Below are positions 3,897 to 48,993 of a DNA stretch of 59,038 nt, in pieces. Source of the stretch: Candidatus Saccharimonadales bacterium (GTDB lineage Bacteria > Patescibacteriota > Saccharimonadia > Saccharimonadales > DASWIF01); the NCBI GenBank assembly GCA_036397795.1, contig DASWIF010000040.1, forward strand, positions 1 through 59,038, given 5' to 3'. The notes beneath the pieces were generated by a model, which was not told the origin of the DNA, did not search any database, and saw nothing but the letters and a program-made list of their open reading frames with translations. The stretch's first letter is position 1, and each line of letters opens with the position of its first letter. Made by a program: the position numbers and the translations under genes.

Positions 3897-4256
3897 TCAG
3901 TCGGCATTTTTGGCGGGTTTTAGACCAGCTTTAGCGAGCGAGTCTGCCACTAAGCGCTCCAGCTCGGCTTGCTCGACTTTAGCTAGGTCAGACGAGAAGA
4001 CCGAAACGATTAGATCGTGGCCATTGGTGGGTTCAGGCCAGAGTTTTGCCATGGTAGAAAATAGCCGGCGCCGGATACGATTGCGGGCCGGAGCGGATTT
4101 GGCCGTTTTCTTGCTGACGATTACCGCCAGTCGATTGTGCTTAGTGTCATTTGGTAGGAACCGGACAGACAGCGGACCCGCGCGGACACTGCGGCCGCGG
4201 CGATAGACGACTGCCAGATCACGCCTGTCACTCAAGCGATGGCGGCGGTTGATCAT
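3897..4256 (-). CDS. rnpA: Ribonuclease P protein component
   Basis: ORF track, 119 aa, basic. RLSDRRDLAVVYRRG ... NRLAVIVSKK ... ARNRIRRRL. Located directly downstream of rpmH. Confidence 0.8.
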   Translation of the reverse strand: MINRRHRLSDRRDLAVVYRRGRSVRAGPLSVRFLPNDTKHNRLAVIVSKKTAKSAPARNRIRRRLFSTMAKLWPEPTNGHDLIVSVFSSDLAKVEQAELERLVADSLAKAGLKPAKNAD

Positions 4257-4262
4257 AGTTGT

Positions 4263-4400
4263 TCAAGCGCTCAGCTTTGAGCGTTGCTTGAGCCGCCGCG
4301 ACTTGATAACTTTTCGGCCGGTACCCGACAACATCCTAGCCCGCCAGCCGTGCACACGCTGTCGTTTTCTGGTCTTGGGTTGATGGGTCCTTTTGGGCAT
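4263..4400 (-). CDS. rpmH: 50S ribosomal protein L34
   Basis: Below the ORF-track size cutoff; found by hand. Translation is [45 protein letters not shown] (45 aa) with a TGA stop at 4263-4265. Confidence 0.9.
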
Positions 4401-6316: not shown

Positions 6317-7405
6317 ATGAAGGTTGCGCTGAAGCAAGAAAAGCTGGCACAAGCATTGTTGTTAGTAGGCCGAGTCGCAACCAGCCGAGCCGCTCTGCCG
6401 GTGCTGGCAAACGTTTTAATCAAGGTTGACTCAAAGCAGACTGTCCTAACGACTACTAATTTGGAGATTGCAATAACGCAAACAATCGGTGGCAAAGTCG
6501 GCCAACCCGGAGCGATTACAGTCCCCGCCCGCCTGTTTAATGACTACATTAACTCTTTGCCGGAGGAGCTAGTAGAGTTAGCCGGTGAAAACCAGAAGCT
6601 ACATGTTAAAAGCGGTGAATATACGTCAACCATAAACGGGATGCCAGCCGAGGAGTTTCCGGAGTTACCAAGCATGGGTAAAAGCCAAAAGTTCAGCGTT
6701 GATGCGCAAGAGCTAAAAAACGCCATCCAGCAAACCATCTTCAGCGCCTCAAGCGACGAAACCCGACCAGTGTTGACCGGCGGTTATATTCACACCCACG
6801 AGAATAAAATTTATATGGTTTCAACCGACAGCTATCGATTGGCACAAAAACAGCTTAGTGGCAAGCCCAGCGGAGAGTTCAGGTTAATTATTCCGGCAAA
6901 TGCGCTCGGCGACGTAGTGCGAATTATTGGCGACGGCCAGGGTACGGTAATGGTTATCTACGATGATACCCAAATCCAGTTTGACTACGACCAAAGCACG
7001 CTAATAACCAAGCAAATCGAAGGCCAGTTTCCAGAGTACCGACAGTTGATCAGCCCAGACAGCGAAGCGAGCTTTACGATTAAAAAAGCTGAATTTCTAA
7101 ACCTCGCAAAAGTAGCCAGCTTGTTCGCCCGGGAGAGCGCTGGTAGTGTTACGCTGGAAGTTAGCCAAGGGGAGATAAGTATTAATTCCGTGGCGTCCCA
7201 AGTTGGAGAGAATACATCCAAGGCTAAGGCCAAGACAGAGGGTGAAGGCAAGGTGACACTTAACTCAAGATATCTAATTGAAGCACTCAACGCGACCGAA
7301 GGCGAGGCGGTAAGGTTCCGCTTTAGCGGCAAGGTCAGCCCGTGTGTATTAACACCGGCAGAAAATGACGAAACTACCCATATCATCATGCCGCTTAAGA
7401 GCTAG
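6317..7405 (+). CDS. dnaN: DNA polymerase III beta sliding clamp
   Basis: ORF track, 362 aa. Typical N-terminus ...LAQALLLVGRVATSRAALPVLANVLI and synteny dnaA-dnaN-recF. Confidence 0.95.
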   Translation: MKVALKQEKLAQALLLVGRVATSRAALPVLANVLIKVDSKQTVLTTTNLEIAITQTIGGKVGQPGAITVPARLFNDYINSLPEELVELAGENQKLHVKSGEYTSTINGMPAEEFPELPSMGKSQKFSVDAQELKNAIQQTIFSASSDETRPVLTGGYIHTHENKIYMVSTDSYRLAQKQLSGKPSGEFRLIIPANALGDVVRIIGDGQGTVMVIYDDTQIQFDYDQSTLITKQIEGQFPEYRQLISPDSEASFTIKKAEFLNLAKVASLFARESAGSVTLEVSQGEISINSVASQVGENTSKAKAKTEGEGKVTLNSRYLIEALNATEGEAVRFRFSGKVSPCVLTPAENDETTHIIMPLKS

Positions 7406-13031: not shown

Positions 13032-14966
13032 TTAAATCTCCATCACTTGCGGCTGGTCGGTTTGATTCGGCTGTGTTACTGCCGTTTCAGGCTCATTTAT
13101 TTGCGACAGTTGCTCAATAGCTTTTAATTGCTTCGGGTCGGTTGAGATAAGCGAGGTCTCGGTGGCGCTGGCGATAACCTGGATATGGACATGATTTTGA
13201 CCGGCAAACAGTAGCCCCTGTCCGACCGGAAACTGCGCCAGGCGCTTCTTTTCTTCGCTGGTCAGTTTGAAGGTATCGGCCAGAACGTCGACGGCTGAAG
13301 TCGATTGTTTGAGCAGGATTTGCATCGAGCTGTTGGCCACCACCGCCCGGCCCATCTTGGAGCTCATGAAGTCTTCGACGTCTTGGCTAATAGCGGTTAA
13401 CCCCAAATTATATTTTCTGGCCCGTTTGGCTAAGGAGAATAAGAAATTGGCCGAATCCTCATATTTCATCAGCTGCCAGGCCTCGTCAACCACCAGCATG
13501 CGTTTTTGGCGGTCGGTCTTGGTTTTGTTCCAAATGTAATTAAGCACGATATACATGGCTACCGGTCTGAGCTCGTCCTCCAGATCGCGGATATTAAACA
13601 CTACTAAGCTGTTGTTGATGTCAACGTTGCTTTGCTGCGAAAAGACACCGGCAAACGTACCGCTGGTGTATTTTCTCAGGCGTTGGGCTAGTTGCGGGCC
13701 GGTGCCGCCCATGTGCAGCAGGGTTTCATACAAGTCGTTGATCGTCGGCGGCGGAGTGCGGTGGGTCAACGGGTCATTGGTGATACCGGCTTTAGCGTAC
13801 GTTTCGATTAAGGCTTGGTCTAGATCGGCTTCCTCGACCGGACTGAGCGCCGGCATGGCCACGCCGCCGCTGGCGGCCGCGGCCGCTTGAGCTTGGGCGC
13901 CGCCCATCATCAATCTGAGCAAGCCGTGCAAACTGATCAAATTGGCGCGAAGCGCGTTGTCGGCGTCTTCCTTTTCAACTACTTGGGGCAGATCGAATGG
14001 GTTAATCCGGGTGGGTGAGCTAAGACTCAGCCGGACGTAAGAGCCGCCGACGGCGTCCGACATCCGTTGATACTCGTTTTCCGGATCGATAATAATAACC
14101 TCGGTGCCAAACATCATGGAGCGCAGAGCCTCCAGCTTGACCGCAAACGATTTACCGGCACCCGATTTGGCAAAAACCACCAAGTTGGCGTTTTCCAGCC
14201 GAAAACGGTCAAATATGACCAAGCCGGAATTGTGCATATTGACACCATAAAGAATACCGTCCTCGTCCGTTAAGTCGGCCGAGGTAAAAGGAAAGCTGGT
14301 AGACAGCGCGCCGGTCGACATATTGCGACGAATTTGCAATTGATCCAAGGCCTGAGGGATAGTGGAATTAAAACCTTGCTCCATTTGGACTGTGGCCGGT
14401 TTGGAATAAACCAACTGCTGGCCCAGGATGGTTTCAATCTTGTGTTCGACAAAATCAAGCTCCTCTAGGCTGCCGGCATAAATCGTAAAGTAAAAACCGA
14501 ACCTAAAGAAACGTTCCTCGCCAATTTGCAACTTGTCCCTTAGCTCTTCGGCATCCTGAATAGCGGCCTGCAGACCGACATCTCTAACCCGGCCCTTTTC
14601 GGCGTTAATCTGGATACCGGCTTCCAGCTGCCCGACCTTTTTCTTGAGGTTTTGGAGCACGACTTGGCTTTCCACCGGGTAGACAAACATGGAAATATCT
14701 ATTTCTTCATCGACATTGATAATCGGTGACAGCCAGCCGGTGTAAATTTGCCGGGGGTAACCATAGACGTAGAATGTTCGGGCGTAGCGCGTACCGATTC
14801 TAAAATGGCCGGATTCGAGCTCGATTGAACTCGGCGCGATGAAGTCTCTAAGAGCCGTAACGCCTTTTCTAAACTCTTGTTCGACCTCAGTTTGCTCTCG
14901 GGCACGCTGATATGCGGCCAAATCAATCGGATCATGTTGAGGTTGTTTATTACCAAAAAGGGCCAC
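13032..14966 (-). CDS. virB4: Type IV secretion ATPase VirB4/TrbE/PrgJ family
   Basis: ORF track, 644 aa, GTG start. Walker A VFAKSGAGKSFA (about 14145-14179), Walker B MLVVDEAWQLM, and a Gram-positive VirB4 N-domain pattern APSSIELESGHFRIGTRYARTFYVYGYPRQIYTGWL. Confidence 0.9.
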   Translation of the reverse strand: MALFGNKQPQHDPIDLAAYQRAREQTEVEQEFRKGVTALRDFIAPSSIELESGHFRIGTRYARTFYVYGYPRQIYTGWLSPIINVDEEIDISMFVYPVESQVVLQNLKKKVGQLEAGIQINAEKGRVRDVGLQAAIQDAEELRDKLQIGEERFFRFGFYFTIYAGSLEELDFVEHKIETILGQQLVYSKPATVQMEQGFNSTIPQALDQLQIRRNMSTGALSTSFPFTSADLTDEDGILYGVNMHNSGLVIFDRFRLENANLVVFAKSGAGKSFAVKLEALRSMMFGTEVIIIDPENEYQRMSDAVGGSYVRLSLSSPTRINPFDLPQVVEKEDADNALRANLISLHGLLRLMMGGAQAQAAAAASGGVAMPALSPVEEADLDQALIETYAKAGITNDPLTHRTPPPTINDLYETLLHMGGTGPQLAQRLRKYTSGTFAGVFSQQSNVDINNSLVVFNIRDLEDELRPVAMYIVLNYIWNKTKTDRQKRMLVVDEAWQLMKYEDSANFLFSLAKRARKYNLGLTAISQDVEDFMSSKMGRAVVANSSMQILLKQSTSAVDVLADTFKLTSEEKKRLAQFPVGQGLLFAGQNHVHIQVIASATETSLISTDPKQLKAIEQLSQINEPETAVTQPNQTDQPQVMEI

Positions 14967-14979
14967 TAGACAACCTCAA

Positions 14980-15445
14980 CAGTATTTAGGAAATAGTATT
15001 TGGGAATAAGGAAAGAAGTCATTTTTTATCGCCCCAGCTTCTGGCTGTTTTAATTAAACCGGATATCAACTTTTGGGTATCTTCAACTTGTTTAACTAAC
15101 TTTGTAAAATCCGAAGTGTTAATGTATCCTACATCTCTCGCGATGACTAACTGGTTCTCAACTTCGGTCAATGAACTAATAGCTATAGTGTAAAACTGAA
15201 CCTTATCTCCACGTGTATTGCGCGAAAAACCCTCGGCGACATTCGATGTAACTGATACGATGGCGCGTCTCAATTGACTTGTCAGGCCGTAATCTTCTGA
15301 CCTCGGAAAGCTGGATGTTACTTTGTAAATATCTAGTAACAATTGATGGCCTGCTTGCCAGGCTCGCAGGTCGGTGAACTTCTTGATCTTGCTAATTGTT
15401 GGACTTTCCATTTCCATATTCCTAAATACTACTTCCCGTATACTG
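14980..15445 (-). mobile_element. IVS-like cassette: four-helix-bundle gene bounded by 29-nt imperfect inverted repeats (candidate insertion / RNA processing element)
   Basis: Left arm 14980-15008 is CAGTATTTAGGAAATAGTATTTGGGAATA. The reverse complement of right arm 15417-15445 is CAGTATACGGGAAGTAGTATTTAGGAATA. 24/29 positions are identical. Confidence 0.45.
15019..15417 (-). CDS. Four-helix-bundle protein (23S rRNA intervening-sequence protein / Avd-like family)
   Basis: ORF track 15019..15498, trimmed to internal ATG 15417 so it does not overlap the upstream gene. Family pattern DLRAWQAGHQLLLDIYKVTSSFP ... LTSQLRRAIVSVTSNVAEGFSR ... FYTIAISSLTEVENQL. Confidence 0.8.
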   Translation of the reverse strand: MEMESPTISKIKKFTDLRAWQAGHQLLLDIYKVTSSFPRSEDYGLTSQLRRAIVSVTSNVAEGFSRNTRGDKVQFYTIAISSLTEVENQLVIARDVGYINTSDFTKLVKQVEDTQKLISGLIKTARSWGDKK

Positions 15446-16288
15446 CTCTGGCTGTGCCGGCGACTCGCCTTTCTCAACGATGGGGGCTTCCAAATCACTT
15501 ACGTTTCTTAGATTTTGCCTAGTGGCTGTGTCGGGGTTATAAACATCATAATACAGCTCGATCAACTCCTGTGTGTCCAGCGGGATAGCCTGGACGCTCA
15601 TTTGGTTCAGCCCGCCGACAACGCTCTGGACACGATTTTTGAGTTCTTGTTTGGCCTTACCAAGCTCGCCCTCGTTAATCGTTATAACCTCATTGCCGGC
15701 CGACTTGTTAATTTTAAACAGTTCAAAGAATCCGCTAAATACCTTCTTGCCGGCCTCGACCGGCTTGCTGATATCGATAGTTGGAAAGTAAGGTACCACC
15801 ACATAAAATTGCTTATCCATAATATTGGTTTGTTGCACCAAAGCGTCAATATAAGCGACATAGTCTTCCATTAGCAGCCCGAGTAGCATATTTTCCTGCT
15901 CGGAGCGCAACTGGACTAATTTTTCCAAATAAGGACGCATATCAATCTTTTTTGATCGGATAAAAATTTGAATGGGAAAATACAGTGAGTTTAAAAATCC
16001 TTGGTAGCCATACTCGACCGCCTCTCGTTCTTGCGGGCTCATAAGATCAAAGTTGATTGATTGGGCCATTACCACCGAACGGTACGAACCGTCACGCATG
16101 ATGACAATCCCGTCCCTTATCTCGGCAATGTGGAGGGTATTTTGTGTGCTGTTGGGGTTGGTGCTCTTGGCCGCTACCATCCCGGCCGGCGGTGTGCCTT
16201 GAACCGGGGCCCCTGGGGTGGGTGGAACATTGGTTGGTTGGGGGCCCACCTGACCTTGATTGGGTTGAACTTGATTATCCGGCTGCAT
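15422..16288 (-). CDS. T4SS accessory protein resembling a VirB4 N-terminal domain without the ATPase
   Basis: ORF track 15422..16300 (TTG); ATG at 16288 is more likely. Pro/Gln-rich N-terminus, then IAEIRDGIVIMRDGSYRSVVMAQSINFDLMSPQEREAVEYGYQGFLNSLYFPIQIFIRSKKIDMRPYLEKL. By eye this parallels the VirB4 N-domain. No P-loop. Confidence 0.55.
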   Translation of the reverse strand: MQPDNQVQPNQGQVGPQPTNVPPTPGAPVQGTPPAGMVAAKSTNPNSTQNTLHIAEIRDGIVIMRDGSYRSVVMAQSINFDLMSPQEREAVEYGYQGFLNSLYFPIQIFIRSKKIDMRPYLEKLVQLRSEQENMLLGLLMEDYVAYIDALVQQTNIMDKQFYVVVPYFPTIDISKPVEAGKKVFSGFFELFKINKSAGNEVITINEGELGKAKQELKNRVQSVVGGLNQMSVQAIPLDTQELIELYYDVYNPDTATRQNLRNVSDLEAPIVEKGESPAQPEQYTGSSI

Positions 16289-16348
16289 CTCGCCCACCAA
16301 TTAAATAGGCCATAACCAACAACTGATAACCAACAACTGACAATTCCT

Positions 16349-16723
16349 TCATTTTGATTTCTCCAAAATGCTGCTCAGAATTTTGAGTAACTCATACCCC
16401 TCGACTAGCAGCTCTTGTCTACGTTCAAGCATAGCATTATCTGGGGTGTCAACCAACTTGAGCCAGTAAATGGATTCCTTAGTTTCTTTGCGGGAAATTC
16501 TAAGTCTCATTAGCCGATCTTTGGAACCAAGCGATTCTCTGTGCTCTATATAGTTAGCGCCAACTGAAGCCGAAGAGCGTATGAGTTGTTTTATATATTC
16601 GTGATTGGAAACAGATCGGGGTAGTTTACCGCAAAAATCACGACATAAGCGAGCAAAAAGCAACGTTCGATCCTCTAGATCGAATGGCTTAGTAGCCACT
16701 TTTGTTTGTTGACTCCGATGCAT
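16349..16723 (-). CDS. Four-helix-bundle protein (23S rRNA IVS protein / Avd-like family), second copy
   Basis: ORF track, 124 aa. IKQLIRSSASVGANYIEHRESLGSKDRLMRLRISRKETKESIYWLKL fits the family pattern. Confidence 0.75.
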   Translation of the reverse strand: MHRSQQTKVATKPFDLEDRTLLFARLCRDFCGKLPRSVSNHEYIKQLIRSSASVGANYIEHRESLGSKDRLMRLRISRKETKESIYWLKLVDTPDNAMLERRQELLVEGYELLKILSSILEKSK

Positions 16724-16800
16724 ACAACAAACATTATAACCTCTCTATACCTATTCGTATGCTTGCCAGTTGCAAGTTGATAATTGATAGTTTTTCTCTG

Positions 16801-17757
16801 CTAATGCAGAGAAATTTCATCTCCAGATTCGAGCGACTTCAGCCGCTGCGCTTCGGTGGCCAGGGTCTGAACACTGAGATCGCTGGCGTTGTTGACCAGA
16901 TTGGTAATGGCCGGATCAGGCGCCGACGCAGCCGCGCTGGAATCTTGGAACTGGTATTTGGGAATATGGTTAGCTTCGGTTTTTTTTGGTCTGGTTTTTT
17001 TATTCCCAGCCTTATTCCTAGATACCGATCCCTGGATACTATCGTCGTCTACTGGCTGGATGACGCGCTGCGTCATTTGAGGATAGGGGTTAAAACTCGG
17101 GTCGTTCATGTGTGCGACAGCATCGTCAATCACGTGTTTTTGCTGGTCCTTGATCATCTTGTCAAAATGAGCCGCAATTGGGCTGGCGGATTCGTCCATA
17201 ACGTCGTCTTGGGGGTGGATCTCGAGGGGGGCTAATTGGCCCGGCAGCTGGCTAAGCGAGATAAGTCGATCGCCTTCGATAACAGACTGGGTCGGTATTA
17301 CGATATTAGTTTGGAACCGCGGATCCTTGCTGGACCATCCACGCGAATCCATGGTAGTGGCTAGCTGCTTAAGCCGGCTTCTAACTTCGCCGGTACTAAG
17401 ATTGTCGGACTGATGCAGTTCGACTGATTTTGGAGCAGTAATCCGAACGTTTTCCATAACGCCTTCCTGATTCCAAATGCGCTTATGGGGCTTAAAGTAA
17501 AATCTAACCAACGAGGCCAAGTAGCTCTCAGCTGGCTGGGCCGAATTTTTAACGCCCAAGACAACTAATAGTCCAAAGAACAGGGCGGGTGTGATAGTTA
17601 ACGGCAAGAACACCAACGTGATAGAATTGCGCGCCAAAAGAAAACTGAGCCAACCGGATATAAAAACAATAATTATGTAAATGAACTGTCTGAGGGTAAA
17701 TGGGCCAAGCAGCTTGTCTTCAGCCTCGACGTCCTGGGGGATTTTATAGGTTGCCAT
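16801..17757 (-). CDS. PrgI-family (VirB3-like) T4SS membrane protein
   Basis: ORF track, 318 aa. Diagnostic N-terminus MATYKIPQDVEAEDKLLGPFTLRQFIYIIIVFISGWLSFLL followed by a second TM. Confidence 0.75.
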   Translation of the reverse strand: MATYKIPQDVEAEDKLLGPFTLRQFIYIIIVFISGWLSFLLARNSITLVFLPLTITPALFFGLLVVLGVKNSAQPAESYLASLVRFYFKPHKRIWNQEGVMENVRITAPKSVELHQSDNLSTGEVRSRLKQLATTMDSRGWSSKDPRFQTNIVIPTQSVIEGDRLISLSQLPGQLAPLEIHPQDDVMDESASPIAAHFDKMIKDQQKHVIDDAVAHMNDPSFNPYPQMTQRVIQPVDDDSIQGSVSRNKAGNKKTRPKKTEANHIPKYQFQDSSAAASAPDPAITNLVNNASDLSVQTLATEAQRLKSLESGDEISLH

Positions 17758-17810
17758 ATTAGCTTAAGTATTAAGGATAAAGATTGAAGTATCAAGTCTG
17801 GCCGGCAAGC

Positions 17811-20318
17811 TTACGGTGATGATGGCGGAGAACCTGGTGGGGGCGGCAAATCGCCCGGACCGGGCGGGGTATAACCGGGTGAGCCAGGTGTGAAAATCGT
17901 AGGACCGCCACCAGCGGGTGGCGGCGGAGGAGGTGGTGGAGCAGCGCCACCAGCGGGTGGCGGCGGAGGGCGTGTACCATCAAGATATCTTTTTGTCAGA
18001 TTGTCATAGTAGGTGTCAAAATCTCTAGATATGTTAATAGTCTCTCTTATATTTTCCTCAAAATCAGCTCTTTGTGCCGGGTCGGATATTGAAGCAGGAA
18101 CATTAACCGTATTAGTTGTCACGTCATAATACTCGCTGATGTATCTGTTAACTTGATTGTAGAACGCATCTGCTGTATCGATGGTCATTTTACTTCGTGC
18201 TTGCGGATTAGAGAGAGCTTCCACATATGTTGCCGCCATTTTTTGCATTCCAGACGCTGCTTTATTAGGAGCTTCTTGATAGATAGCCTTAGTGGTTATA
18301 TTTCGGACAGATTCAGGTTTATATTGGGTCAACTGCTCTGGTATAGCTGACATTGAGGCGAGCGTGCCCTTCAATACTTGTGGTCCGATAGTGGCAAGAA
18401 CCGGTGCGTTGAGTGTAACCATCCTATTCAGGTCGCTCTGTTCTGCGGAACTACCAGCTGATTTTATGTGGTCGGCATAGTCTTCAAACGCACCGATTTC
18501 CCTAAAAGTACTAACTAGCTGCTCTGAGGCAGAGATTCTAGCGAAGGCCCCGCTACTTGCGATTCTTCTAATTGCGGCCGTTGCTTGACTATCACCTTGT
18601 ACTTTTTTAATATCCCCAAGCTCACCTTGAGCACTCTTTATGCCCTCGCGATCACCTATAGATGATGCATAAGCTAATCTTGAATTAGCAGCTTGTTTCC
18701 AGCTTTCCGTACTTCCATAAGTAGAAGCTGTTAACACTTGCTTTTGCAAGTCAGAACTAACCGTCGGTAGCGCTTCCGCTACTGCTTGGTCAGCTAACTC
18801 CTTGCCTTCTTTAGCGGCACCAGACAGTTTGGCGCTTTCAAGTGCACGTCCATACTTGGTGGCTCCCCAAACATTTGTTCTTGATCTTAGATATCCTCTT
18901 TTCAACGTATTTTTTACGCCGCCCTCAGGGGTATTGGCCAGTTTACGAAGCCTTCCTCTGTTGCTGAATGCTTTTCTGGCTTCATCTGAAGCCTTGGCTC
19001 GCTCTTTCAATCCACCAGTCAGCCCTCCTCTCATTCGGTCGGCTACCCCGGCCAGCTGGCCGATAGCACCCCCCGCTAGACGGAAAGTATAAGGAATTAA
19101 GAAATACGGTGCAAAATAAGCCAAATAAACAACTATGTCAAAAGTACCTTCCGACACAGCACTATCGTCCGTGCTAACCTCGCTTAGAGTGCGAGCTAGA
19201 ACTTCACCACTTTTAAGAAGAAGTATTATTATCGGGTACATCAAAGCGGCCTTGGAAAACAATTGCCACCAAGCTTTGGCGAGCCCATCGGTTTCTCGAT
19301 GGACCCAGGCTATGGCTGCCAGCGGAGAGAGTACGATTAGCATAATCAATATGACTTTCCGTATGATTAATATAAAGAATACGACCATAAGGATTACACC
19401 GACGCCTACTAAAGAAGCAAGCATGGTAAACAATCCCGCTCCGGCTGCTAAAGGCACGCCCAGTACCAGAAAACCGCCGACAGTGGCATCTTCCCAGAAA
19501 GGCCTGGCGCCATCCCCGCTTTGGACTAAGACTGACGCTATTTCAAAATTCTCGCCCCTAAATACCCAATTGAATATACCCTCCACACCGGCACCTAGAA
19601 CGTTAACAAAGTCTAGAAAGTAAACGGATAAGAAGAATGAAAGCTGGACTAATATCGCGGCCAATCCCAGTCTTGGCAACAAGGATCTGATGGTAAAAGC
19701 ATTGTTACCGCTAGAAAACGCTACTAGGTAAATAGCGTAGAGAAAGGTCAATGCAAAAAATGAATTGGCAATCAGCCGAAAAGCTGTCCAGGTTCGATAA
19801 GCGGTGCTGTCATCATTGCCGGAATCAGCAAAACCGACTTCGTCTACCCGCAAGTTCGCATATTCATCACCTTGCTTGCCAAGTACAAAGTTGACTATGC
19901 TTTTGACGACATCACCCATCCACTCCAGAACACTGCAGATTATATAGCCTAGACCAGCGTTCTCGCTCCGGCAGGTTTGCTCGGCCTCAACCGGAGCATC
20001 GTCTTCAGGCGGATCTCCGGGGTTTGTTGTATCGTCGTGATCATAGGTGGCAACACAGTCGCTGAACTCTTGCCCGCTACTCTGATTTGTAAAAATTTCA
20101 CAGGCTTCTTCAACCGTAAGCCCACTGTTGTCCCGACGGCATCCTTCCTGATCCGCCGGAGAGCCTCTGGCTTCACAATATTCATCAATGTGGTGGTCGG
20201 CGTAGACTGGAGTCACGGTTGGGATAATCTGGAAAAACAAGACCCCAACGAACGACAACAAAAATAGTAGAACAATACTTTTGTTTCTAAGCTTCACAAT
20301 GCCAACATTGTAACCCAA
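17811..20318 (-). CDS. VirB6/TrbL/PrgH-like polytopic T4SS membrane protein with proline-rich C-terminal tail
   Basis: ORF track, 835 aa (TTG start is uncertain; GTG at 20297 is possible). N-terminal signal/TM, Cys-rich ectodomain, at least 6 TM helices at about aa 180-400. Tail is PPPPAGGAAPPPPPPPPAGG...PPPPGSPPSSP. Confidence 0.65.
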   Translation of the reverse strand: MGYNVGIVKLRNKSIVLLFLLSFVGVLFFQIIPTVTPVYADHHIDEYCEARGSPADQEGCRRDNSGLTVEEACEIFTNQSSGQEFSDCVATYDHDDTTNPGDPPEDDAPVEAEQTCRSENAGLGYIICSVLEWMGDVVKSIVNFVLGKQGDEYANLRVDEVGFADSGNDDSTAYRTWTAFRLIANSFFALTFLYAIYLVAFSSGNNAFTIRSLLPRLGLAAILVQLSFFLSVYFLDFVNVLGAGVEGIFNWVFRGENFEIASVLVQSGDGARPFWEDATVGGFLVLGVPLAAGAGLFTMLASLVGVGVILMVVFFILIIRKVILIMLIVLSPLAAIAWVHRETDGLAKAWWQLFSKAALMYPIIILLLKSGEVLARTLSEVSTDDSAVSEGTFDIVVYLAYFAPYFLIPYTFRLAGGAIGQLAGVADRMRGGLTGGLKERAKASDEARKAFSNRGRLRKLANTPEGGVKNTLKRGYLRSRTNVWGATKYGRALESAKLSGAAKEGKELADQAVAEALPTVSSDLQKQVLTASTYGSTESWKQAANSRLAYASSIGDREGIKSAQGELGDIKKVQGDSQATAAIRRIASSGAFARISASEQLVSTFREIGAFEDYADHIKSAGSSAEQSDLNRMVTLNAPVLATIGPQVLKGTLASMSAIPEQLTQYKPESVRNITTKAIYQEAPNKAASGMQKMAATYVEALSNPQARSKMTIDTADAFYNQVNRYISEYYDVTTNTVNVPASISDPAQRADFEENIRETINISRDFDTYYDNLTKRYLDGTRPPPPPAGGAAPPPPPPPPAGGGPTIFTPGSPGYTPPGPGDLPPPPGSPPSSP

Positions 20319-21297: not shown

Positions 21298-21368
21298 ACT
21301 TCGCTCGCTAAACTTATTGTAACAGAAATACCTGATTTATTCAATTGCTGACCGAAGCTTAGGTTGTT

Positions 21369-21377
21369 TGGTACAAT
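21369..21377 (+). promoter_or_regulatory. Extended -10 promoter element of the pilin operon (TGGTACAAT)
   Basis: Read directly. It ends 8 nt before ATG 21386, which implies a leaderless or near-leaderless mRNA. Confidence 0.4.
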
Positions 21378-21385
21378 CATCTCTG

Positions 21386-21829
21386 ATGTTACTCAGTTTG
21401 AAAAAGTATTCATACCTTTGGCCCCATTTGATTATTGGTGTGCTAATGTTCTCTATTGCTCTGTTGTTAACGACTGCCCAAGAAGTTTACGCCGACCATA
21501 CGATACAACACTGTGCTGATCAGACCGGTTCAGAGAATAACCAAGATTACATTGACTGCGTAAACAATATCGGCGGCGAAGTCGATACGTTAGAAAGTAA
21601 TCCTATATTTAAGCGTCTAGCGGATATTGTTAACTTCCTGGGGCTGGGTGTGGCTATTGCAGTTACCGGCTTATTAGTTGTAGGCGGAATTCAATACATT
21701 ACTTCGGCTGGCAATCCCCAACAGATTAGCTCGGCCAAATCCCGCATCAGAAACGCGTTAATCGCTCTAGTTTTATACATTTTTATGTACGCTATCCTGC
21801 AGTGGGCTGTGCCAGGAGGAATATTCTAG
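21386..21829 (+). CDS. T4SS pilin (TrbC/VirB2-like, CPR T4SS_pilin type), paralog 1
   Basis: ORF track 21368..21829 (TTG). ATG 21386 preferred because of the promoter above. Signal peptide ...LLLTTAQEVYA, then IVNFLGLGVAIAVTGLLVVGGIQYITSAGNPQQISSAKSRIRNALIALVLYI. Confidence 0.75.
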   Translation: MLLSLKKYSYLWPHLIIGVLMFSIALLLTTAQEVYADHTIQHCADQTGSENNQDYIDCVNNIGGEVDTLESNPIFKRLADIVNFLGLGVAIAVTGLLVVGGIQYITSAGNPQQISSAKSRIRNALIALVLYIFMYAILQWAVPGGIF

Positions 21830-21830
21830 T

Positions 21831-22187
21831 ATGGATTTATTGATTTTGTTCGCCGCGGCTTGCCGACCGGGAGCTGGTTTTTCTCTAGGTCTGCCGACCT
21901 GGTACCAGTATTTAGAATGCACCAACAGTGCGCCGCAAATCAATGAACTTAACGACATTCTGCTCATCGGGGCGGCCATAATCGAGATACTTATATTCGT
22001 GGCCGGGGTCTTGACGGTTTTTTGGATGATTTACGGCGGCATCGCCTTTATTACCAGTCAAGGGGCGCCCGATCGGGTAGCCCAGGCCCGGCAGACGCTG
22101 ATTTACGCCGCCGCCGGACTAGTGGTAGCGGTAGTGGCTAAGGGAATTGTCAGCTATATCTTCAGCCAGTTTGGGGTTCAGGGGTGA
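21831..22187 (+). CDS. T4SS pilin paralog 2
   Basis: ORF track, 118 aa. ILIFVAGVLTVFWMIYGGIAFITSQGAPDRVAQARQTLIYAAAGLVVAVV. The ATG lies 1 nt after the previous stop. Confidence 0.75.
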   Translation: MDLLILFAAACRPGAGFSLGLPTWYQYLECTNSAPQINELNDILLIGAAIIEILIFVAGVLTVFWMIYGGIAFITSQGAPDRVAQARQTLIYAAAGLVVAVVAKGIVSYIFSQFGVQG

Positions 22188-22708
22188 AGTGGTTGTTCGC
22201 CCAATTGGGCGGGGTGGATATTCCTAAAGTCGAGGCCAATGAGGCCAGCCTCCGAACAGCTATCAATTTTATGTTCCAGCTGGCCGCGGCATTAGCGCTG
22301 GTATACGTCATTATTAGCGCCATCAGATTTACGATCTCAGCGGGTGATCCGCAGCAGATAGCCAACGCCAGACGAACCCTAATTTATGCGCTGGTGGGCT
22401 TGGGTATCTCGGTTACAGCCTTGGCGATAACTTCCATTGTCCAAGGCGTGGCCAACCGGGCCGCTGGCGAGGCCAACCCGTTTTTTGGCGGGGATGGCGT
22501 GATAACCCAGTTGGTTGATCAATTAAGTTTCGCGGTCGGCGTGGCCTCCGTCATCATGGTTATTATTGGTGCATTCAGGTTTGTCACCTCCGGGGGCCAG
22601 TCACAATCGGCCCAGGGGGCTAGGGATACAATTATCTACGCGCTAATCGGTTTAGGTGTAGCTATTGCCGGGCGTCTTATTGTAACCTTTGTATTAGGAA
22701 GGATTTGA
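22184..22708 (+). CDS. Fused double T4SS pilin (two tandem pilin domains), paralog 3
   Basis: ORF track, 174 aa. Domain 1: ALALVYVIISAIRFTISAGDPQQIANARRTLIYALVGLGISV. Domain 2: VASVIMVIIGAFRFVTSGGQSQSAQGARDTIIYALIGLGVAI. 4-nt start/stop overlaps on both sides. Confidence 0.75.
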   Translation: MKWLFAQLGGVDIPKVEANEASLRTAINFMFQLAAALALVYVIISAIRFTISAGDPQQIANARRTLIYALVGLGISVTALAITSIVQGVANRAAGEANPFFGGDGVITQLVDQLSFAVGVASVIMVIIGAFRFVTSGGQSQSAQGARDTIIYALIGLGVAIAGRLIVTFVLGRI

Positions 22709-23154
22709 CAGTGCGACGCAGCCTGAACTACATCAAGATATTTCCAGTATTAATAATTCTACTGGGCTTGGTTATGGTCTTTACGATGCAGGTTCCTGCC
22801 TACGCCCAGCAATCCGATCCGTCAGACGTGGCCTGCCAAGGAATCGAAGCCACCGGGGCTGATTGTCAAGGCGGAGAACGAGACGTCAGAAACACCATCA
22901 GATCAGTGGTCAACATTCTGTTTTATATCGTTGGAATCGCCGCGGTAGTTACGTTCATTATCGGAGCCATCAGGCTTGTGTTGTCAGGCGGTGACCCGCA
23001 GGCGGTAGCCAGTGCCAGAAACACCATGGTTTACGCCGTCGTCGGGGTAGTCGTGGCGGTACTTGCCATAGTTATAGTTAGGTTTGTTTTTGACGAGGTT
23101 GGCGGTACGACCGGGTCGAACGGCGGTGGCGCCAAATTAAGTGGATTAACGTGA
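22705..23154 (+). CDS. T4SS pilin paralog 4
   Basis: ORF track, 149 aa. Signal peptide ...VPAYA, then VVNILFYIVGIAAVVTFIIGAIRLVLSGGDPQAVASARNTMVYAVVGVVVAV. Confidence 0.75.
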   Translation: MTVRRSLNYIKIFPVLIILLGLVMVFTMQVPAYAQQSDPSDVACQGIEATGADCQGGERDVRNTIRSVVNILFYIVGIAAVVTFIIGAIRLVLSGGDPQAVASARNTMVYAVVGVVVAVLAIVIVRFVFDEVGGTTGSNGGGAKLSGLT

Positions 23155-23210
23155 CAGGCTAAACTTAAGCGTGCTACAATTCCGTCAGGGTATGAAAAGG
23201 AGAATTAACG

Positions 23211-23579
23211 GTGAATCAAAAGTTTCTAAATAAGAAGACAGTAACAGCCGCCACGACGCTGGCTACCGCCGCCTCTTTTTTGGGCGGAACGCGGGTGTTT
23301 GCCCAGATAGATACTGGCATTGATGCGGCCGATCCAGGTCAGAACGAAGGTGAACTGGAAGATATCATTCAAAACGTGATTAATGTTTTGCTATTTGTCG
23401 TCGGTGTGGCTGCTGTTGTCATGCTGATCGTCGGCGGCATTCGCTACGTGGTCTCGGCCGGAGATCAGCAAGCCGTAGCTAACGCTAAAAACACGGTCCT
23501 TTACTCGATCGTTGGCGTGGTAGTAGCTTTTCTGGCGTTCGTCGCCGTTGAATTTGTGTTTAACCAGCTACAAGGCTGA
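23211..23579 (+). CDS. T4SS pilin paralog 5
   Basis: ORF track, 122 aa, GTG start with RBS AAAAGGAG. VINVLLFVVGVAAVVMLIVGGIRYVVSAGDQQAVANAKNTVLYSIVGVVVAF. Confidence 0.8.
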   Translation: MNQKFLNKKTVTAATTLATAASFLGGTRVFAQIDTGIDAADPGQNEGELEDIIQNVINVLLFVVGVAAVVMLIVGGIRYVVSAGDQQAVANAKNTVLYSIVGVVVAFLAFVAVEFVFNQLQG

Positions 23580-24115: not shown

Positions 24116-24156
24116 AATACCTCCCGGGAAACCTGCTTCATGCTTTACTTCTGACC

Positions 24157-24186
24157 ATTATAGCTAATACACTAGACCAGTTGCAA
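24157..24186 (-). promoter_or_regulatory. Sigma70-type promoter of hsp20 (TTGCAA-N18-TATAAT on minus strand)
   Basis: -10 is the reverse complement of 24157-24162; -35 is at 24181-24186; the spacer is 18 nt. Confidence 0.5.
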
Positions 24187-24222
24187 CAAATTGTGTTGTA
24201 AAAAGTGTTCATGGAGATATAA

Positions 24223-45579: not shown

Positions 45580-48500
45580 TTGGGGGTAAGCTTGGTGCGC
45601 ACTACATATTTTGTTCGTCCAAATATTCGGCTGTTCAATCTGATAGCAGCGGCAGTTTTACTGTTAACGTTGTTGGTGCCGTTTGCTGGTGTAGTTAAAG
45701 CCGCACCGCCATCGACCACGATTAGCTCGAGCGCCCAAACCTTGGGTAACCTAAATAACTTACTCGGCGTTAACGCCGGGACTTCAGGTATTGTTTATTC
45801 GCGCAAGAATCCGGGCGTGCTGTGGCTGGTGAACGACCAGCGCGATCGGCCGGATGGCGGCAGCCAAACGTTGTACGCTATCGACCCGGCCGCTTGGCGG
45901 GTGCTGGCCCGCTACACCGTTACGACTGCCGCTGGCTCGCCTTATAGCTGGACGGATATGGAAGACATGGCTACCGGCCCCGGCGGTTCGACCGGCTGGT
46001 ATCTTTACTTGTACGAGAATTTACCCGGCGTTGGCACGAATCATTTATTACGGATCGAGGAACCAATCGTCACGCTTTCGCAGCCGACTAATAACACCGC
46101 CACGGTAGCGGTTGATAGAGACGTCAGCTTGAATTTTTCTCTTAGCTCCAATGTGGAAGTTGAGACACTGGCTTATGACAGTACAACCGACACGGCGCTG
46201 TTCGTTGAGCGCCGCCGTTCTAATTCTGGCTGTACGATGTCGGCCGACGATACGCCTAACCGAACGTGGAAGGCCGATAACTTTGCCGCCCAAGTTAGCG
46301 TAGGCTCCACCGTCCAGTTGACTAGTACCAGCGGCGTGGCCGGGCGGCCGCTGGGCGCGCCTAATAACCCGTTTAATATGATTGGCGGGGGTGATATTTC
46401 CGTCGACGGACACGTGTTTGGGGTTAATACCGCTCCCCGGTTTGGCAACTGCACTAACCGCGACGCTTATGCCACTCTTCGCTACCGAGAAGACGGACAG
46501 ACGTGGGATCAAGCCTTGGCCGCTCAGGTCCAGATTGCTTATGGCGATTCTCGGCAGGCTTTAACCTTTAATTCGGAGTCCTTTGCCTTCGCTACCGATA
46601 TGAGCCATATTTTATACGGGCCGGAATTTGGCGGCAGTGGCGGGGTACTGTATCGCAAGAACATAACTTACGTGCCGCCAACTGGCACACCCCCACCTCC
46701 ACCCCCGCCCGACGGTGACCCAGTACCGACGACCGTAGTAGCCCCAGGCTCCAGTTGGCGCTACAACGCCAGCGGAACCGATCTTGGTACGGCCTGGCGC
46801 GGTGTCGGTTACAGCGACGGTTCGTGGCCGGTCGGCAATACCCAGTTTGGCTTTGGCGAAAACGACCAAGCGACCACCATCCCCAACAACGGCATCACTT
46901 CTTACTACCGCACAACCTTTGACGTGGCCGATATCAGCCAGGTGACGGCGCTTGATCTCAATTTAGTCCGCGATGACGGCGCGGTAGTCTACGTCAACGG
47001 CGTGGAAGTTAACCGCCAAAGCATGCCCGGCGGCACGGTTACATTTGGCACTCTGGCCAACTGGACTCCAAACGCAGAAGAAAATGCCTGGCACGCCGCC
47101 AGCCTTAGCCCGGCTAATTTGGTTAATGGCGCCAATACGCTGGCGGTTGAGGTTCATAACTCCAGCGCTTCCAGCTCGGACGTAAGTTTTGATCTTGAAC
47201 TCATCCTGACGGCGACCGACGAAGGTACGCCACCACCGCCACCACCGCCACCTCCTCCGCCCACCGGTTTTAGCGTGGTAGCGGCCGCCGGCGATATTGC
47301 CAGCTGTTCCTCGCCCGGCGACGAACAAACAGCCTCGGTAGTTAGTAGTATATTCGCCAGCGGCAGTGGCAGCGTAGCGACGGTAGGCGACCACGCCTAC
47401 AATGACGGCACGACTGCCGAATTTGCCAATTGCTACGATCCAACCTGGGGCGAATTCAAAGATATTACTTATCCGGCGGTAGGCAACCACGAGTACCACA
47501 CCAGCGGCGCCACGCCGTATTACAACTACTTCGGCGCCCGGGCGGGCGACCCGACTCAAGGCTATTACTCCTATGACATCGACGCCAATTGGCACGCGGT
47601 CGTACTCAACTCAATGTGCGCGGAGGTTGCCGGTGGCGGCTGCGGCGCCAGCAGCGCCCAGACCCAATGGCTCCGAGCTGATTTAGCGGCTAATTCTGAC
47701 AAGAATGTCCTGGCCTATTGGCACCACCCCCGCTTTACCAAGAACAACTATAACGACCACTTAAATGTTCAACCGCTGTGGCAGGCACTGTATGATTTTG
47801 GCGTTGATTTGGCATTAGCTGGCCACGAGCATCACTATGAACGTTACATGCCGCTGGACGCTAACGGTCTACCGGATTCAAACTTTGGCATCCGGGAATT
47901 CATAGTCGGCACTGGCGGAATTGCTCTCCGGCCGCAAATGCAAACGCCGTCGGTTTACTCCGAGACCCGCAACTTCACCGATTGGGGTGTGCTCAAGCTG
48001 ACCCTGACGGCTGACAGCTACGCCTGGGACTTTGTCCACGTGGCCGGTGGTACATATACCGACAGCGGCAGCCAAGCGGTCCATGGCGCTCCGTCAACAC
48101 CTCCGCCCCCGCCTCCGCCGGCCGTGGAGGATTTGCCAATTGATCCCGGCTCGGCCTGGCTCTATAACGACAGTGGAGCTAATTTAGGCACTGCCTGGCG
48201 TGGCGCCGGCTACGATGATAGCTCGTGGTCTAATGGCCCGGCCCAACTGGGCTTTGGTGACGGCGACGAGGCAACGGTAACTATAAAAAATGGCATTACC
48301 ACTTACTTTAGGAAGAAATTCAATGTTAGTGACGTCTCAGCCATCAGCGACCTGACGCTCAATCTTGTCCGCGATGACGGTGCCGTGGTCTACCTAAACG
48401 GCGTTGAAGTTGTTCGGTCCAACATGCCGAGCGGCACCATAAACTTTGACACCAACGCGGCCTCGACGATTGCCGGTGCCGACGAAAGCGCCTGGAACGT

Positions 48501-48993
48501 CTTTACCGTCAGCAAATCTAGCCTGGTAAACGGTACTAACACCATCGCGGTAGAGATTCACAATAACGGCAGTACCAGCTCGGATATCAGTTTTGACCTG
48601 GAGTTGATCGCCAATACGGCTCCAACGCCTCCGCCGCCCGGGCCGGATACGACTCTGCCCGAACCGTTTTCCGGTTTTACGGCTGGCACGGTCTTTAACG
48701 GGCCGAGCGTCACCTTGAGCGGCACGGCCACCGATAACGTCGGCGTCACGCAAGTCAAAGTTGGTGTCAGGCAACGCTTTGGCTCACAACTGTGGTTGCA
48801 AGCCAACGGAACCTTTGCCGCTAGTACTATCAGGCACAACGCCACCGTCACCAACGCCGGCAGCCAGTCGGTCGGCTGGTCTTACTTTATTGCCAACCTG
48901 CCATCCAATGACTATTTGATGTCGGTCTATGCTATCGACGCCGCTAATAACTGGGGACCGATAGCCAGCTGGGTGACTTTCTCAGTTAATTAG
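45580..48993 (+). CDS. Large secreted multidomain protein: calcineurin-like metallophosphoesterase core flanked by two copies of a beta-sandwich domain, poly-Pro linkers, C-terminal Ig-like domain
   Basis: ORF track, 1137 aa. The start is uncertain (TTG 45580, TTG 45592 or GVG-context GTG 45595). TM/signal LFNLIAAAVLLLTLLVPFAGVVKA. Phosphoesterase motifs: GDIASC, VGDHAYNDG, GNHEY, WHHPRF, GHEHHYERY. Repeated domain at about 46741-47215 and 48141-48612. Confidence 0.8.
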   Translation: MGVSLVRTTYFVRPNIRLFNLIAAAVLLLTLLVPFAGVVKAAPPSTTISSSAQTLGNLNNLLGVNAGTSGIVYSRKNPGVLWLVNDQRDRPDGGSQTLYAIDPAAWRVLARYTVTTAAGSPYSWTDMEDMATGPGGSTGWYLYLYENLPGVGTNHLLRIEEPIVTLSQPTNNTATVAVDRDVSLNFSLSSNVEVETLAYDSTTDTALFVERRRSNSGCTMSADDTPNRTWKADNFAAQVSVGSTVQLTSTSGVAGRPLGAPNNPFNMIGGGDISVDGHVFGVNTAPRFGNCTNRDAYATLRYREDGQTWDQALAAQVQIAYGDSRQALTFNSESFAFATDMSHILYGPEFGGSGGVLYRKNITYVPPTGTPPPPPPPDGDPVPTTVVAPGSSWRYNASGTDLGTAWRGVGYSDGSWPVGNTQFGFGENDQATTIPNNGITSYYRTTFDVADISQVTALDLNLVRDDGAVVYVNGVEVNRQSMPGGTVTFGTLANWTPNAEENAWHAASLSPANLVNGANTLAVEVHNSSASSSDVSFDLELILTATDEGTPPPPPPPPPPPTGFSVVAAAGDIASCSSPGDEQTASVVSSIFASGSGSVATVGDHAYNDGTTAEFANCYDPTWGEFKDITYPAVGNHEYHTSGATPYYNYFGARAGDPTQGYYSYDIDANWHAVVLNSMCAEVAGGGCGASSAQTQWLRADLAANSDKNVLAYWHHPRFTKNNYNDHLNVQPLWQALYDFGVDLALAGHEHHYERYMPLDANGLPDSNFGIREFIVGTGGIALRPQMQTPSVYSETRNFTDWGVLKLTLTADSYAWDFVHVAGGTYTDSGSQAVHGAPSTPPPPPPPAVEDLPIDPGSAWLYNDSGANLGTAWRGAGYDDSSWSNGPAQLGFGDGDEATVTIKNGITTYFRKKFNVSDVSAISDLTLNLVRDDGAVVYLNGVEVVRSNMPSGTINFDTNAASTIAGADESAWNVFTVSKSSLVNGTNTIAVEIHNNGSTSSDISFDLELIANTAPTPPPPGPDTTLPEPFSGFTAGTVFNGPSVTLSGTATDNVGVTQVKVGVRQRFGSQLWLQANGTFAASTIRHNATVTNAGSQSVGWSYFIANLPSNDYLMSVYAIDAANNWGPIASWVTFSVN

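Follow-up and report, generated by a model that had tools for sequence, protein, structure and literature searches.

Since the early 1990s, it has been an open question what the intervening sequences (IVSs) of ribosomal RNA (rRNA) do and where they come from, and the same holds for the PF05635 'four helix bundle protein' family, which is very large. The IVS in the 23S rRNA of Coxiella burnetii has a length of 428 nt, is closed by a 28-bp terminal stem and contains an open reading frame (ORF) for S23p, a PF05635 protein, whose ATG is preceded by three GACAGAT heptamers (PMC4990558). RNase III cuts this IVS at the first heptamer repeat in the stem, thereby removing the Shine-Dalgarno (SD) sequence; proposals for the origin of the IVS include the remnant of a transposition and a mobile element that is helped to move by its ORF (PMC4990558). 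ORF-bearing 23S IVSs are also found in Leptospira, Brucella and Haemophilus, and short ORF-less IVSs, stem-loops of around 100 nt in the 23S rRNA of Salmonella, Yersinia and Campylobacter, share sites with the ORF-bearing forms. Here, we describe two gene cassettes, each containing a gene for a four-helix-bundle (4HB) protein, which lie between protein-coding genes of a type IV secretion system (T4SS) operon in a stretch of 59,038 nt, hereafter the window, from a Saccharimonadales metagenome-assembled genome. The explanation that we favour as a whole, and that we regard as probable, is that both cassettes are copies of a mobile IVS-type element residing in an mRNA operon; that they are IVS-type mobile insertions at all is very probable.

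Several other systems share features with these cassettes. The heptamer repeats GGGAATC of Xanthomonas, GGGGAYT of Nostoc/Anabaena, known as short tandemly repeated repetitive (STRR) sequences, and TAACTGA of Beggiatoaceae preferentially occur in around four units, overlap start or stop codons, form convergent inverted pairs and host transcript starts or ends (PMC4692102, PMC4679880). They resemble the arms of the cassettes in their 7-nt units, their copy number of about four, their overlap with start and stop codons and their inverted pairs; however, they have been treated as G-quadruplex or regulatory motifs, with no link to 4HB genes (PMC4692102, PMC4679880). Avd and bAvd, the accessory proteins of diversity-generating retroelements (DGRs), have a homologous four-helix-bundle fold, form pentamers and have a role in the handling of nucleic acids (PMC10053308). 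23S_rRNA_IVP genes were furthermore found in cas operons by Zhang, Doak and Ye in 2014 and were read as cas-associated (PMC3936711); there, the 4HB gene is wedged between the consecutive genes cmr3 and cmr2, an arrangement that is also seen in the cassettes and that we could reproduce in Picosynechococcus. That account described neither arms nor heptamers, empty sites or mobility (PMC3936711). The original statement that neither a mobile nor a regulatory role of this kind had been described for protein-coding operons therefore has to be narrowed: the genes have been known in cas operons since 2014, but were not read there as inserted IVS-type cassettes. In the open-access full-text literature, we found no report linking heptamers with 4HB genes and none describing the cassette architecture in protein-coding operons. 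A survey of rRNA insertions in bacteria of the Candidate Phyla Radiation (CPR) revealed few 23S_rRNA_IVP ORFs in rRNA, and the rRNA genes of Saccharibacteria were largely free of insertions (PMC11270868).

Cassette 1 spans positions 14980 to 15445 (466 nt) on the minus strand, as do all operon genes and cassette features discussed below, and is similar in size to the ORF-bearing 23S IVSs (428 to 444 nt). In both, a PF05635/S23p four-helix-bundle ORF is held in the loop of a terminal stem, which comprises 28 bp in Coxiella and around 29 to 35 bp in cassette 1. Tandem heptamers directly upstream of the ATG and a sporadic, mobile occurrence are common to the Coxiella IVS and the cassettes. The correspondence to the rRNA IVS layout that had been proposed from the sequence thus extends down to the tandem heptamers at the ATG (PMC4990558). 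The two differ in their host site, which is helix 45 of the 23S rRNA for the Coxiella IVS and the space between protein-coding T4SS genes for the cassettes, and, unlike in rRNA IVSs, one arm of cassette 1 is translated and forms the end of the upstream gene. Moreover, the Coxiella ORF is apparently decaying and untranslated, whereas the cassette ORFs are intact and conserved and contain an invariant SNxAEGFxR-type motif. Of the features that characterize IVSs, the PF05635 ORF and the heptamers at the ORF start are present in the window, the long closing stem is found in cassette 1 only, and a site in an rRNA helix is absent.

The 5' arm of cassette 1 (15417-15445) has the sense sequence CAGTATACGGGAAGTAGTATTTAGGAATA and is composed of the heptamer words AGTATAC, GGGAAGT, AGTATTT and AGGAATA. 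The 3' arm (14980-15008; sense TATTCCCAAATACTATTTCCTAAATACTG) begins 10 nt past the stop codon of the enclosed gene, 4HB-1, and is the complement of the 5' arm: 24 of 29 positions match between 14980-15008 and the reverse complement of 15417-15445, and the inverted repeat extends to 45 nt at 78% in a repeat search (14970-15014/15411-15455). The 5' arm encodes the final seven codons and the TAG stop (15422-15424) of the upstream gene X (QYTGSSI*), contains an SD-like AGGAA and ends at the ATG of 4HB-1, and the 3' arm ends 2 nt before the GAGG SD sequence (14974-14977) of the downstream gene, which encodes a VirB4-type ATPase. Coordinates, arm sequences and the position of the arms relative to these start, stop and SD signals are hence as originally described. 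In the minimum free energy (MFE) structure, cassette 1 is closed by its stem (z = -4.0), and the 16 nt directly behind the cassette (14964-14979), including the VirB4 GAGG, pair with 15446-15455 at the stem base.

An inverted repeat of this kind is not common by chance in this DNA. Cassette 1 is the sole case in the window in which two 29-mers at a spacing of 200 to 700 nt match in inverted orientation at 24 or more positions, and no such repeat occurred in 10 shuffles of the window. Its duplex energy of -60.3 kcal/mol is reached by only one of 3164 background pairs of the same geometry, and the word AGTATTTRGGAA occurs four times at an expectation of 0.53. The one outscoring background pair (-72 kcal/mol) is located in a GC-rich region at around 47.6-48.1 kb, within a GC-rich ORF of 1137 aa (45580-48993, plus strand) that contains short CGCCACCAC/CACCCC repeats. 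A chance inverted repeat beside an ordinary small gene, with no element involved, is refuted for cassette 1 by its uniqueness in the window and in the shuffles, by the heptamer periodicity and by the conservation of the arms; although the complementarity of cassette 2 lies at background level, the empty-site comparisons and the family-wide heptamer architecture described below make this explanation negligible for the locus.

Cassette 2 lies one gene further upstream in the same operon and belongs to a different 4HB subfamily. Its 5'-side heptamer array (16763-16790; sense TATCAA TTATCAA CTTGCAA CTGGCAA) is located between the stop codon of a PrgI-like gene (16801) and the ATG of 4HB-2 (16723), and its 3'-side array (16312-16343), a perfect repeat of two 14-nt units (plus strand ATAACCAACAACTG, sense CAGTTGTTGGTTAT), between the 4HB-2 stop codon and the start of X. 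The segment 16312-16340 is the strongest period-14 array of the window, and 16763-16789 is its joint-strongest period-7 array, tied with one other site. The flanks are built from inverted CAACTG-type words, and a closing stem is present in the MFE structure (z = -2.5), so that folding closes both cassettes by stems, as had been proposed as a check. The predicted 18/28 complementarity and the CAACTG words could be confirmed, but the pairing itself does not exceed the background (duplex energy -25.9 kcal/mol compared to a background mean of -25.3 kcal/mol), which is chance level and speaks against the reading as an IVS-type element, at least for the stem of this copy. Cassette 2 is probably an older copy whose arms have decayed.

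Both 4HB proteins exceed the PF05635 gathering cut-off of 33.8 bits, which bears out their assignment to the IVS family, as do their structural relatives. 4HB-1 (15019-15417, 132 aa; 130 aa in the NCBI annotation, which starts at the second ATG at 15411) matches the PF05635 23S_rRNA_IVP profile with E = 3e-35 (120.9 bits) and belongs to the XCC0516/2GSC-like subfamily (2GSC, E = 1.6e-19). 4HB-2 (16349-16723, 124 aa) matches PF05635 with E = 6e-9 (36.4 bits) and is 2RLD-like (2RLD, E = 4.7e-8); the two proteins share no BLAST similarity with each other. As 23S_rRNA_IVP genes recur in cas loci and were interpreted accordingly (PMC3936711), 4HB proteins could be accessory subunits of host systems, of the T4SS here and of Cmr/Cas elsewhere, or else remnants of DGRs, Avd proteins that have lost their reverse transcriptase (RT). 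4HB-1 indeed shows a weak match to bAvd (PF22296; E = 3.8e-5); its score of 24.6 is, however, below the 40-bit cut-off, and the surroundings of the cassettes differ from those of DGR Avd in that no RT domain was detected among the 51 window ORFs scanned and template and variable repeats are absent from the window as well. The operons that host 4HB genes are, in addition, unrelated to each other, and the presence of 4HB genes is sporadic within one orthologous operon, which makes both versions of this explanation very improbable.

We collected 80 orthologous Saccharibacteria loci with a VirB4 sequence identity of 76 to 82%, 78 of which contain both X and VirB4. X directly adjoins VirB4 in 68 of these 78 loci: in 52 by a 1-nt overlap of stop and start codon (TAATG/TGATG), in two by a 4-nt overlap, in 11 with a spacer of 0 to 22 nt, and in three that had been separated by an ORF-call artefact and proved adjacent by tblastn. 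The remaining junctions contain an ORF-less spacer of 84 to 121 nt that is rich in heptamer words (seven loci: L012, L016, L037, L043, L047, L052 and L062), an ORF-less insertion of 289 nt with a perfect 23-bp stem (L032) or a 4HB gene (L020 and L050). VirB4 is translationally coupled to X by this 1-nt overlap in 52 of the 78 loci, and direct TAATG coupling is the ancestral state. A similar picture emerges for the second junction: the gap between the PrgI-like gene and X is mostly 20 to 60 nt long in the 70 measurable loci (below 100 nt in 60 of them), as compared to 500 nt in the window, and a search with the family hidden Markov model found only three 4HB genes in around 1 Mb of orthologous loci. 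Since most of the 78 loci lack the cassettes at the same junctions, this comparison indicates that both cassettes are insertions, and the alignment of orthologues that had been suggested as a check has thus yielded both their absence from most loci and the empty-site junction.

The site of cassette 1 can be read from the ends of X. In the window, X keeps its conserved C-terminus up to ..AQPE and diverges exactly at the CAGTAT with which the arm starts, whereas the native protein ends with ..QPNLERELQ* in most relatives and with ..APEVAQ* in L001. Directly behind the 3' arm, the relic TTGAGGTTGTCTAGTG (14964-14979) contains GAG GTT GTC TAG TG, which translates to E-V-V-stop and in which the TAG (14966-14968) overlaps the GTG start codon of VirB4 (14964-14966) by 1 nt; this is comparable to the closest relative L001, in which ..APEVAQ* is followed by TAATG. 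As judged from these sequences, cassette 1 inserted within the final codons of X, and the ancestral stop/start junction and the VirB4 SD remain behind the 3' arm.

ORF-less heptamer spacers occupy the exact junctions at which other genomes hold 4HB cassettes. They are analogous to the short ORF-less IVSs of 23S rRNA, except that they are located in mRNA, and so is a hairpin in the tail of the PrgI-like gene (see below). Their shared position and word structure suggest that ORF-less spacers and hairpins are derivatives of 4HB cassettes. Spacers of around 130 to 360 nt of this kind are also present at the PrgI/X junction of L016, L050 and L062. Their heptamers include CAAACTT, CAACAGY and CTCACTG, each in four copies, and GGGTWTAG..., and some have an inverted partner. 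The 289-nt insertion at the X/VirB4 site of L032 (5711-6001; stem TATAGCCCCCGCAAAACAAATTC/GAATTTGTTTTGCGGGGGCTATA) lacks a 4HB ORF and is a different hairpin element.

Copies at other positions reveal that the element does not stay in place. A closer relative, represented by a short metagenomic contig (L182; X 75% and VirB4 84% identical), carries the orthologous cassette at X/VirB4; its ORF is only 63% identical at the amino acid level, but its arms are nearly unchanged. In L180 and L181, the same element is located between hsp20 and a phosphoribosyltransferase (PRTase) gene and has the same arms (5' arm CAGTATATGGGAACGAGTATTTAGGAAT, 3' arm CCTTATTCCTAGATACAAGTTCCTAAATACTA; 29 of 33 positions identical). 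The corresponding hsp20/PRTase intergenic region of the window (24116-24222) comprises 107 nt and is empty, and its flanks GTTGTAAAAAGTGTTCA ... ATGTCATTG are conserved. In a three-way alignment of the window, L182 and L180, conservation is highest in the two arms, of which the 5' arm is around 85 to 90% conserved in L182 and L180, and the CAGTAT...ATACTG termini are conserved. Because the same element is found at the unrelated hsp20/PRTase locus in another genome, these comparisons indicate that it is mobile and travels as arms plus ORF; together with the empty sites, this supports the mobile insertion that had originally been offered as one of two readings. Of the two 4HB genes at X/VirB4 in the orthologous loci, the one in L020 is of the hb2 type, the one in L050 is of the hb1 type and 44% identical, and a long stem with an unrelated sequence closes each of them; the X/VirB4 junction must therefore have been hit independently. 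On a CPR contig (L081), two 4HB genes of 129 aa (3977-4390 and 6346-6753) are separated by around 2.3 kb within a single string of co-directional genes, and the arms of the two copies, composed of GAATTAC/GAATTAA heptamers, are nearly identical, which suggests a recent duplication or a repeated insertion within one operon.

The heptamer arms are a property of the whole family. We analysed 68 non-redundant hb1-type 4HB genes from metagenomic contigs (loci L087-L166). Our sampling favours CPR bacteria and T4SS loci; because of this bias, no enrichment of cassettes in T4SS loci is claimed. The self-match at a lag of 7 nt is 0.44 upstream and 0.43 downstream of the genes, compared to around 0.28 at other lags and 0.30 inside the ORF, and at a lag of 14 nt it is 0.42 and 0.40, respectively. 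Heptamer arrays are present upstream of 60 and downstream of 61 of the 68 genes, as opposed to 6 of 166 control windows. They have a median length of 27 to 30 nt, corresponding to around four units; the upstream array ends at the ATG, and the downstream array begins around 12 nt before the end of the 4HB stop codon. In 43 of 55 cases, the upstream and downstream consensus heptamers are reverse complements of each other at 6 or more of 7 positions (cross-locus controls: 30%), and duplexes between the flanks exceed displaced controls in strength (p = 1.2e-5). These displaced-window and heptamer-consensus controls were used instead of a cross-locus permutation of duplex energies, which was dropped as its background is high (-38), one core being common to the arms of different elements. 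This core is of the RGWAT type (ATGAATT, AGGAATC, AGTATTT), and the arm of cassette 1 fits it. Both neighbouring genes are co-oriented with the 4HB gene in 46 of 57 elements, and in none is it antisense to both. The stop codon of the upstream gene has a median distance of around 29 nt from the 4HB ATG, and that gene thus usually shares its last nucleotides with the 5' array, as is the case in the window. The core class (GAAT or GTAT) barely tracks the 4HB protein tree, with an identity of 0.66 within and 0.63 between classes; the arm units must therefore change in concert, from GAAT to GTAT, and do so at a higher rate than the protein.

Similar cassettes can also be found in other hosts and at other junctions. 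Members of the hb2 subfamily in L168, L175 and L177 have the same layout, with AAATTCG-type words upstream and TTTCGAA-type words downstream, and L175, a Paceibacterota T4SS locus, has its hb2 cassette upstream of VirB4, where it separates PrgI from a TraC-like gene. An hb2-type cassette is located at leuB/asd in Omnitrophica, and another Saccharibacteria genome has a 4HB cassette at rpsR/efp. In cyanobacteria, plasmid C of Trichormus (A.) variabilis ATCC 29413 contains a cassette in a T4SS operon upstream of TrbI/VirB10, with arms of five AxTCAGA units and of TCTGAxT, and a plasmid of Picosynechococcus PCC 7003 contains one between cmr2 and cmr3, with GGAGATA and TATCTCC arms. The two sites lie at around 60.3-60.8 kb of NC_007412.1 and at around 126.5-126.9 kb of NZ_CP016476.1, respectively. 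In Xanthomonas campestris, a four-unit GGGAATC-type array overlaps the start of the gene for the crystallised 4HB protein XCC0516, 6 nt from bccP (PMC4692102, supplement). No hb2-type relatives were found in the viral contigs or among the plasmids searched. Taken together, these cases indicate that the element invades protein-coding operons in several phyla. In L085 (3439-4378), a gene of 189 aa contains the N-terminal domain of Glyco_transf_4 only and is overlapped at its end by a 4HB gene; it may be a glycosyltransferase gene truncated by a cassette insertion.

This distribution also bears on the other reading that had been put forward originally, namely that the cassettes are a built-in, host-selected regulatory device, in which the stems and the 4HB proteins set the stoichiometry of PrgI, X and VirB4 via mRNA processing or long-range translational coupling. 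The fold, with the VirB4 SD at the stem base and the X stop codon inside the 5' arm, would be suited to such a function, and hb2-type cassettes at the same PrgI/X junction in L167 and in the Paceibacterota locus L175 as well as the cassette in a cyanobacterial plasmid T4SS operon would agree with it. However, the X/VirB4 junction is empty in 68 of 78 loci and the PrgI/X gap is shorter than 100 nt in 60 of 70, the same type of element is found in ribosomal-protein, leucine, cmr, glycosyltransferase and acc operons, and the ancestral direct TAATG coupling needs no device. A host-selected device is thus improbable.

How the element moves is less clear-cut. It has been considered that the cassettes are DNA-level transposons, similar to MITEs (miniature inverted-repeat transposable elements), with the 4HB gene as a passenger and the arms as terminal inverted repeats (TIRs) for a transposase or recombinase supplied in trans; the RNA stem would then be incidental and the mRNA unprocessed. 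Like MITEs and other non-autonomous TIR elements, the cassettes are small, have terminal inverted repeats, show insertion polymorphism and lack a transposase of their own. The arms are more conserved than the ORF between copies at different loci, the CAGTAT...ATACTG termini are retained, ORF-less derivatives exist, and a transposition origin has already been proposed for rRNA IVSs (PMC4990558). Furthermore, pairing in the sense strand is not significantly favoured by G-U pairs (better in 41 of 68 elements, p = 0.09), so that the target of selection could be the DNA, as terminal inverted repeats or as a cruciform, and not the RNA. On the other hand, the cassettes differ from MITEs by their conserved ORF and by heptamer arms that vary from copy to copy; at two filled/empty loci, no clear target-site duplication is seen, and no transposase is present in the window. 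As the arms are wholly different between the two cassettes of one genome, and also from one subfamily to the next, such a transposon would require many cognate enzymes; arrays of heptamers in varying copy number are atypical for TIRs, and the homologous rRNA elements are proven substrates of RNase III. A purely DNA-level transposon is therefore the less probable explanation, though one to be taken seriously; it concerns the mode of movement and is compatible with RNA processing after insertion. Integron cassettes differ from the present ones, too: no integrase was found in the window, and the repeats flank the ORF on both sides, unlike the single 3' attC of an integron cassette.

For the IVS-type element, the following mechanism can be proposed. 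The element would be a unit of around 0.45 kb, consisting of a PF05635 gene, around four tandem heptamers up to its ATG and complementary heptamers at or after its stop codon, which inserts into a protein-coding operon, co-oriented with it, instead of into rRNA. Lacking a promoter of its own, it would be transcribed by read-through from the T4SS operon. In the transcript, the arms would form a stem of around 35 bp that hides the SD and the ATG of the 4HB gene and, at its base, buries the SD of VirB4. RNase III may then cleave the stem, as it does in the rRNA of Coxiella, Leptospira and Salmonella, thereby excising the 4HB RNA and splitting the messages of X and VirB4. Alternatively or additionally, ribosomes that terminate translation of X inside the 5' arm could melt the stem, which would couple the initiation of 4HB and VirB4 to the translation of X. 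Arms that are conserved more strongly than the ORF, and heptamers that share an RGWAT-type core and switch their cores in concert, suggest recognition by a sequence-specific binder of the arms, possibly the 4HB protein itself as an Avd-related pentamer, acting in mobility or in RNA handling. The element is apparently selfish.

Several observations weigh against this explanation. The RNase III step is proposed purely by analogy with rRNA IVSs, for which excision is established, and the chance that cleavage actually occurs in the T4SS operon is, in our view, slightly less than even; moreover, if the 5' arm were cut internally, the mRNA of X would lose its stop codon, which looks costly. The three-way alignment of the arms contains one clear compensatory change from A-U to G-C and one from G-U to C-G, which is too few, and the lack of a significant sense-strand bias mentioned above points in the same direction. 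Transposase, RT and rnc genes are absent from the window, and the comparison of filled and empty sites at two loci revealed neither a clear target-site duplication nor precise ends, but at most a possible GAG. For cassette 2, the closest homologue, which is located at the same PrgI/X junction in L167, also pairs weakly. Finally, hb2-type cassettes are present at PrgI/X in three distant genomes, and they could be an old co-inherited resident of this junction rather than the result of repeated insertion.

In transcription order, the genes around the cassettes are one for a large membrane protein of 835 aa (17811-20318), followed by the PrgI-family (VirB3-like) gene (16801-17757), which is the upstream neighbour of cassette 2. 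X (15422-16300, 292 aa), which precedes VirB4, is a conserved gene of the T4SS and has a weak TraC_F_IV match, and the VirB4-type ATPase (13032-14966, 644 aa; P-loop_TraG, AAA_10, DUF87) is the downstream neighbour of cassette 1; genes for an 875-aa protein and for a lysozyme/VanY hydrolase come next in transcription order. The positional counterpart of X in the Paceibacterota locus L175 is annotated as TraC-like, and X may be a split-off N-terminal VirB4/TraC domain that is produced in a fixed ratio with the ATPase. The PrgI-like ORF contains an ORF-less hairpin (17010-17032/16947-16969; aa ~242-271), whose words GGTATCT AGGAATA/TATTCCC AAATACC belong to the word family of the cassette 1 arms and which matches the 3' arm of cassette 1 at 23 of 28 positions (fold z = -2.6). 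It lies in the Lys-rich tail of the PrgI-like protein, which is highly variable among orthologues, and may be a mini-IVS that was absorbed into the coding sequence. A heptamer-like array, TTAAGTATTAAGGATAAAG (17764-17782), which contains an AGTATnnnGG word and is not significant alone, lies between the genes for the 835-aa protein and PrgI and may be a relic at a third junction of the operon. Divergently from the operon, five consecutive T4SS_pilin (PF18895) paralogues are encoded on the plus strand (21368-23579). The window is chromosomal, located near rnpA-yidC and dnaA-dnaN-recF; an Rfam scan of the window returned four tRNAs only, so that the arms match no known RNA family and rRNA is absent.

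It is tempting to speculate, and we do so tentatively, that the 4HB gene and its inverted heptamer arrays form one very widespread, self-contained mobile module, in which a pentameric protein binds its own arrays of around four units, as RNA or single-stranded DNA, to drive the spread of the module or to control its processing by RNase III. The rRNA IVS would then be the special case that was noticed first, and a substantial share of the cyanobacterial STRR sequences, the GGGAATC repeats of Xanthomonas and the heptamers of CPR bacteria would be arms or relics of such modules, which would routinely cut polycistronic mRNAs at gene junctions. Should the same element be a routine insertion, in CPR bacteria and Omnitrophica as well as in cyanobacteria and Xanthomonas, at the gene junctions of T4SS, ribosomal-protein, leucine, acc and cmr operons, a location in rRNA would no longer define it, and its function and origin would become testable in cultivable organisms. 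A candidate origin for enigmatic bacterial heptamer repeats would then be at hand, and thousands of orphan 4HB genes would find a concrete explanation. Caution would also be required with guilt-by-association labels such as 'cas-associated'. In Saccharibacteria, the element comes between X and VirB4, two otherwise tightly coupled genes of their T4SS operon, and a new layer of mRNA segmentation or of long-range translational coupling would be predicted for operons that carry it.

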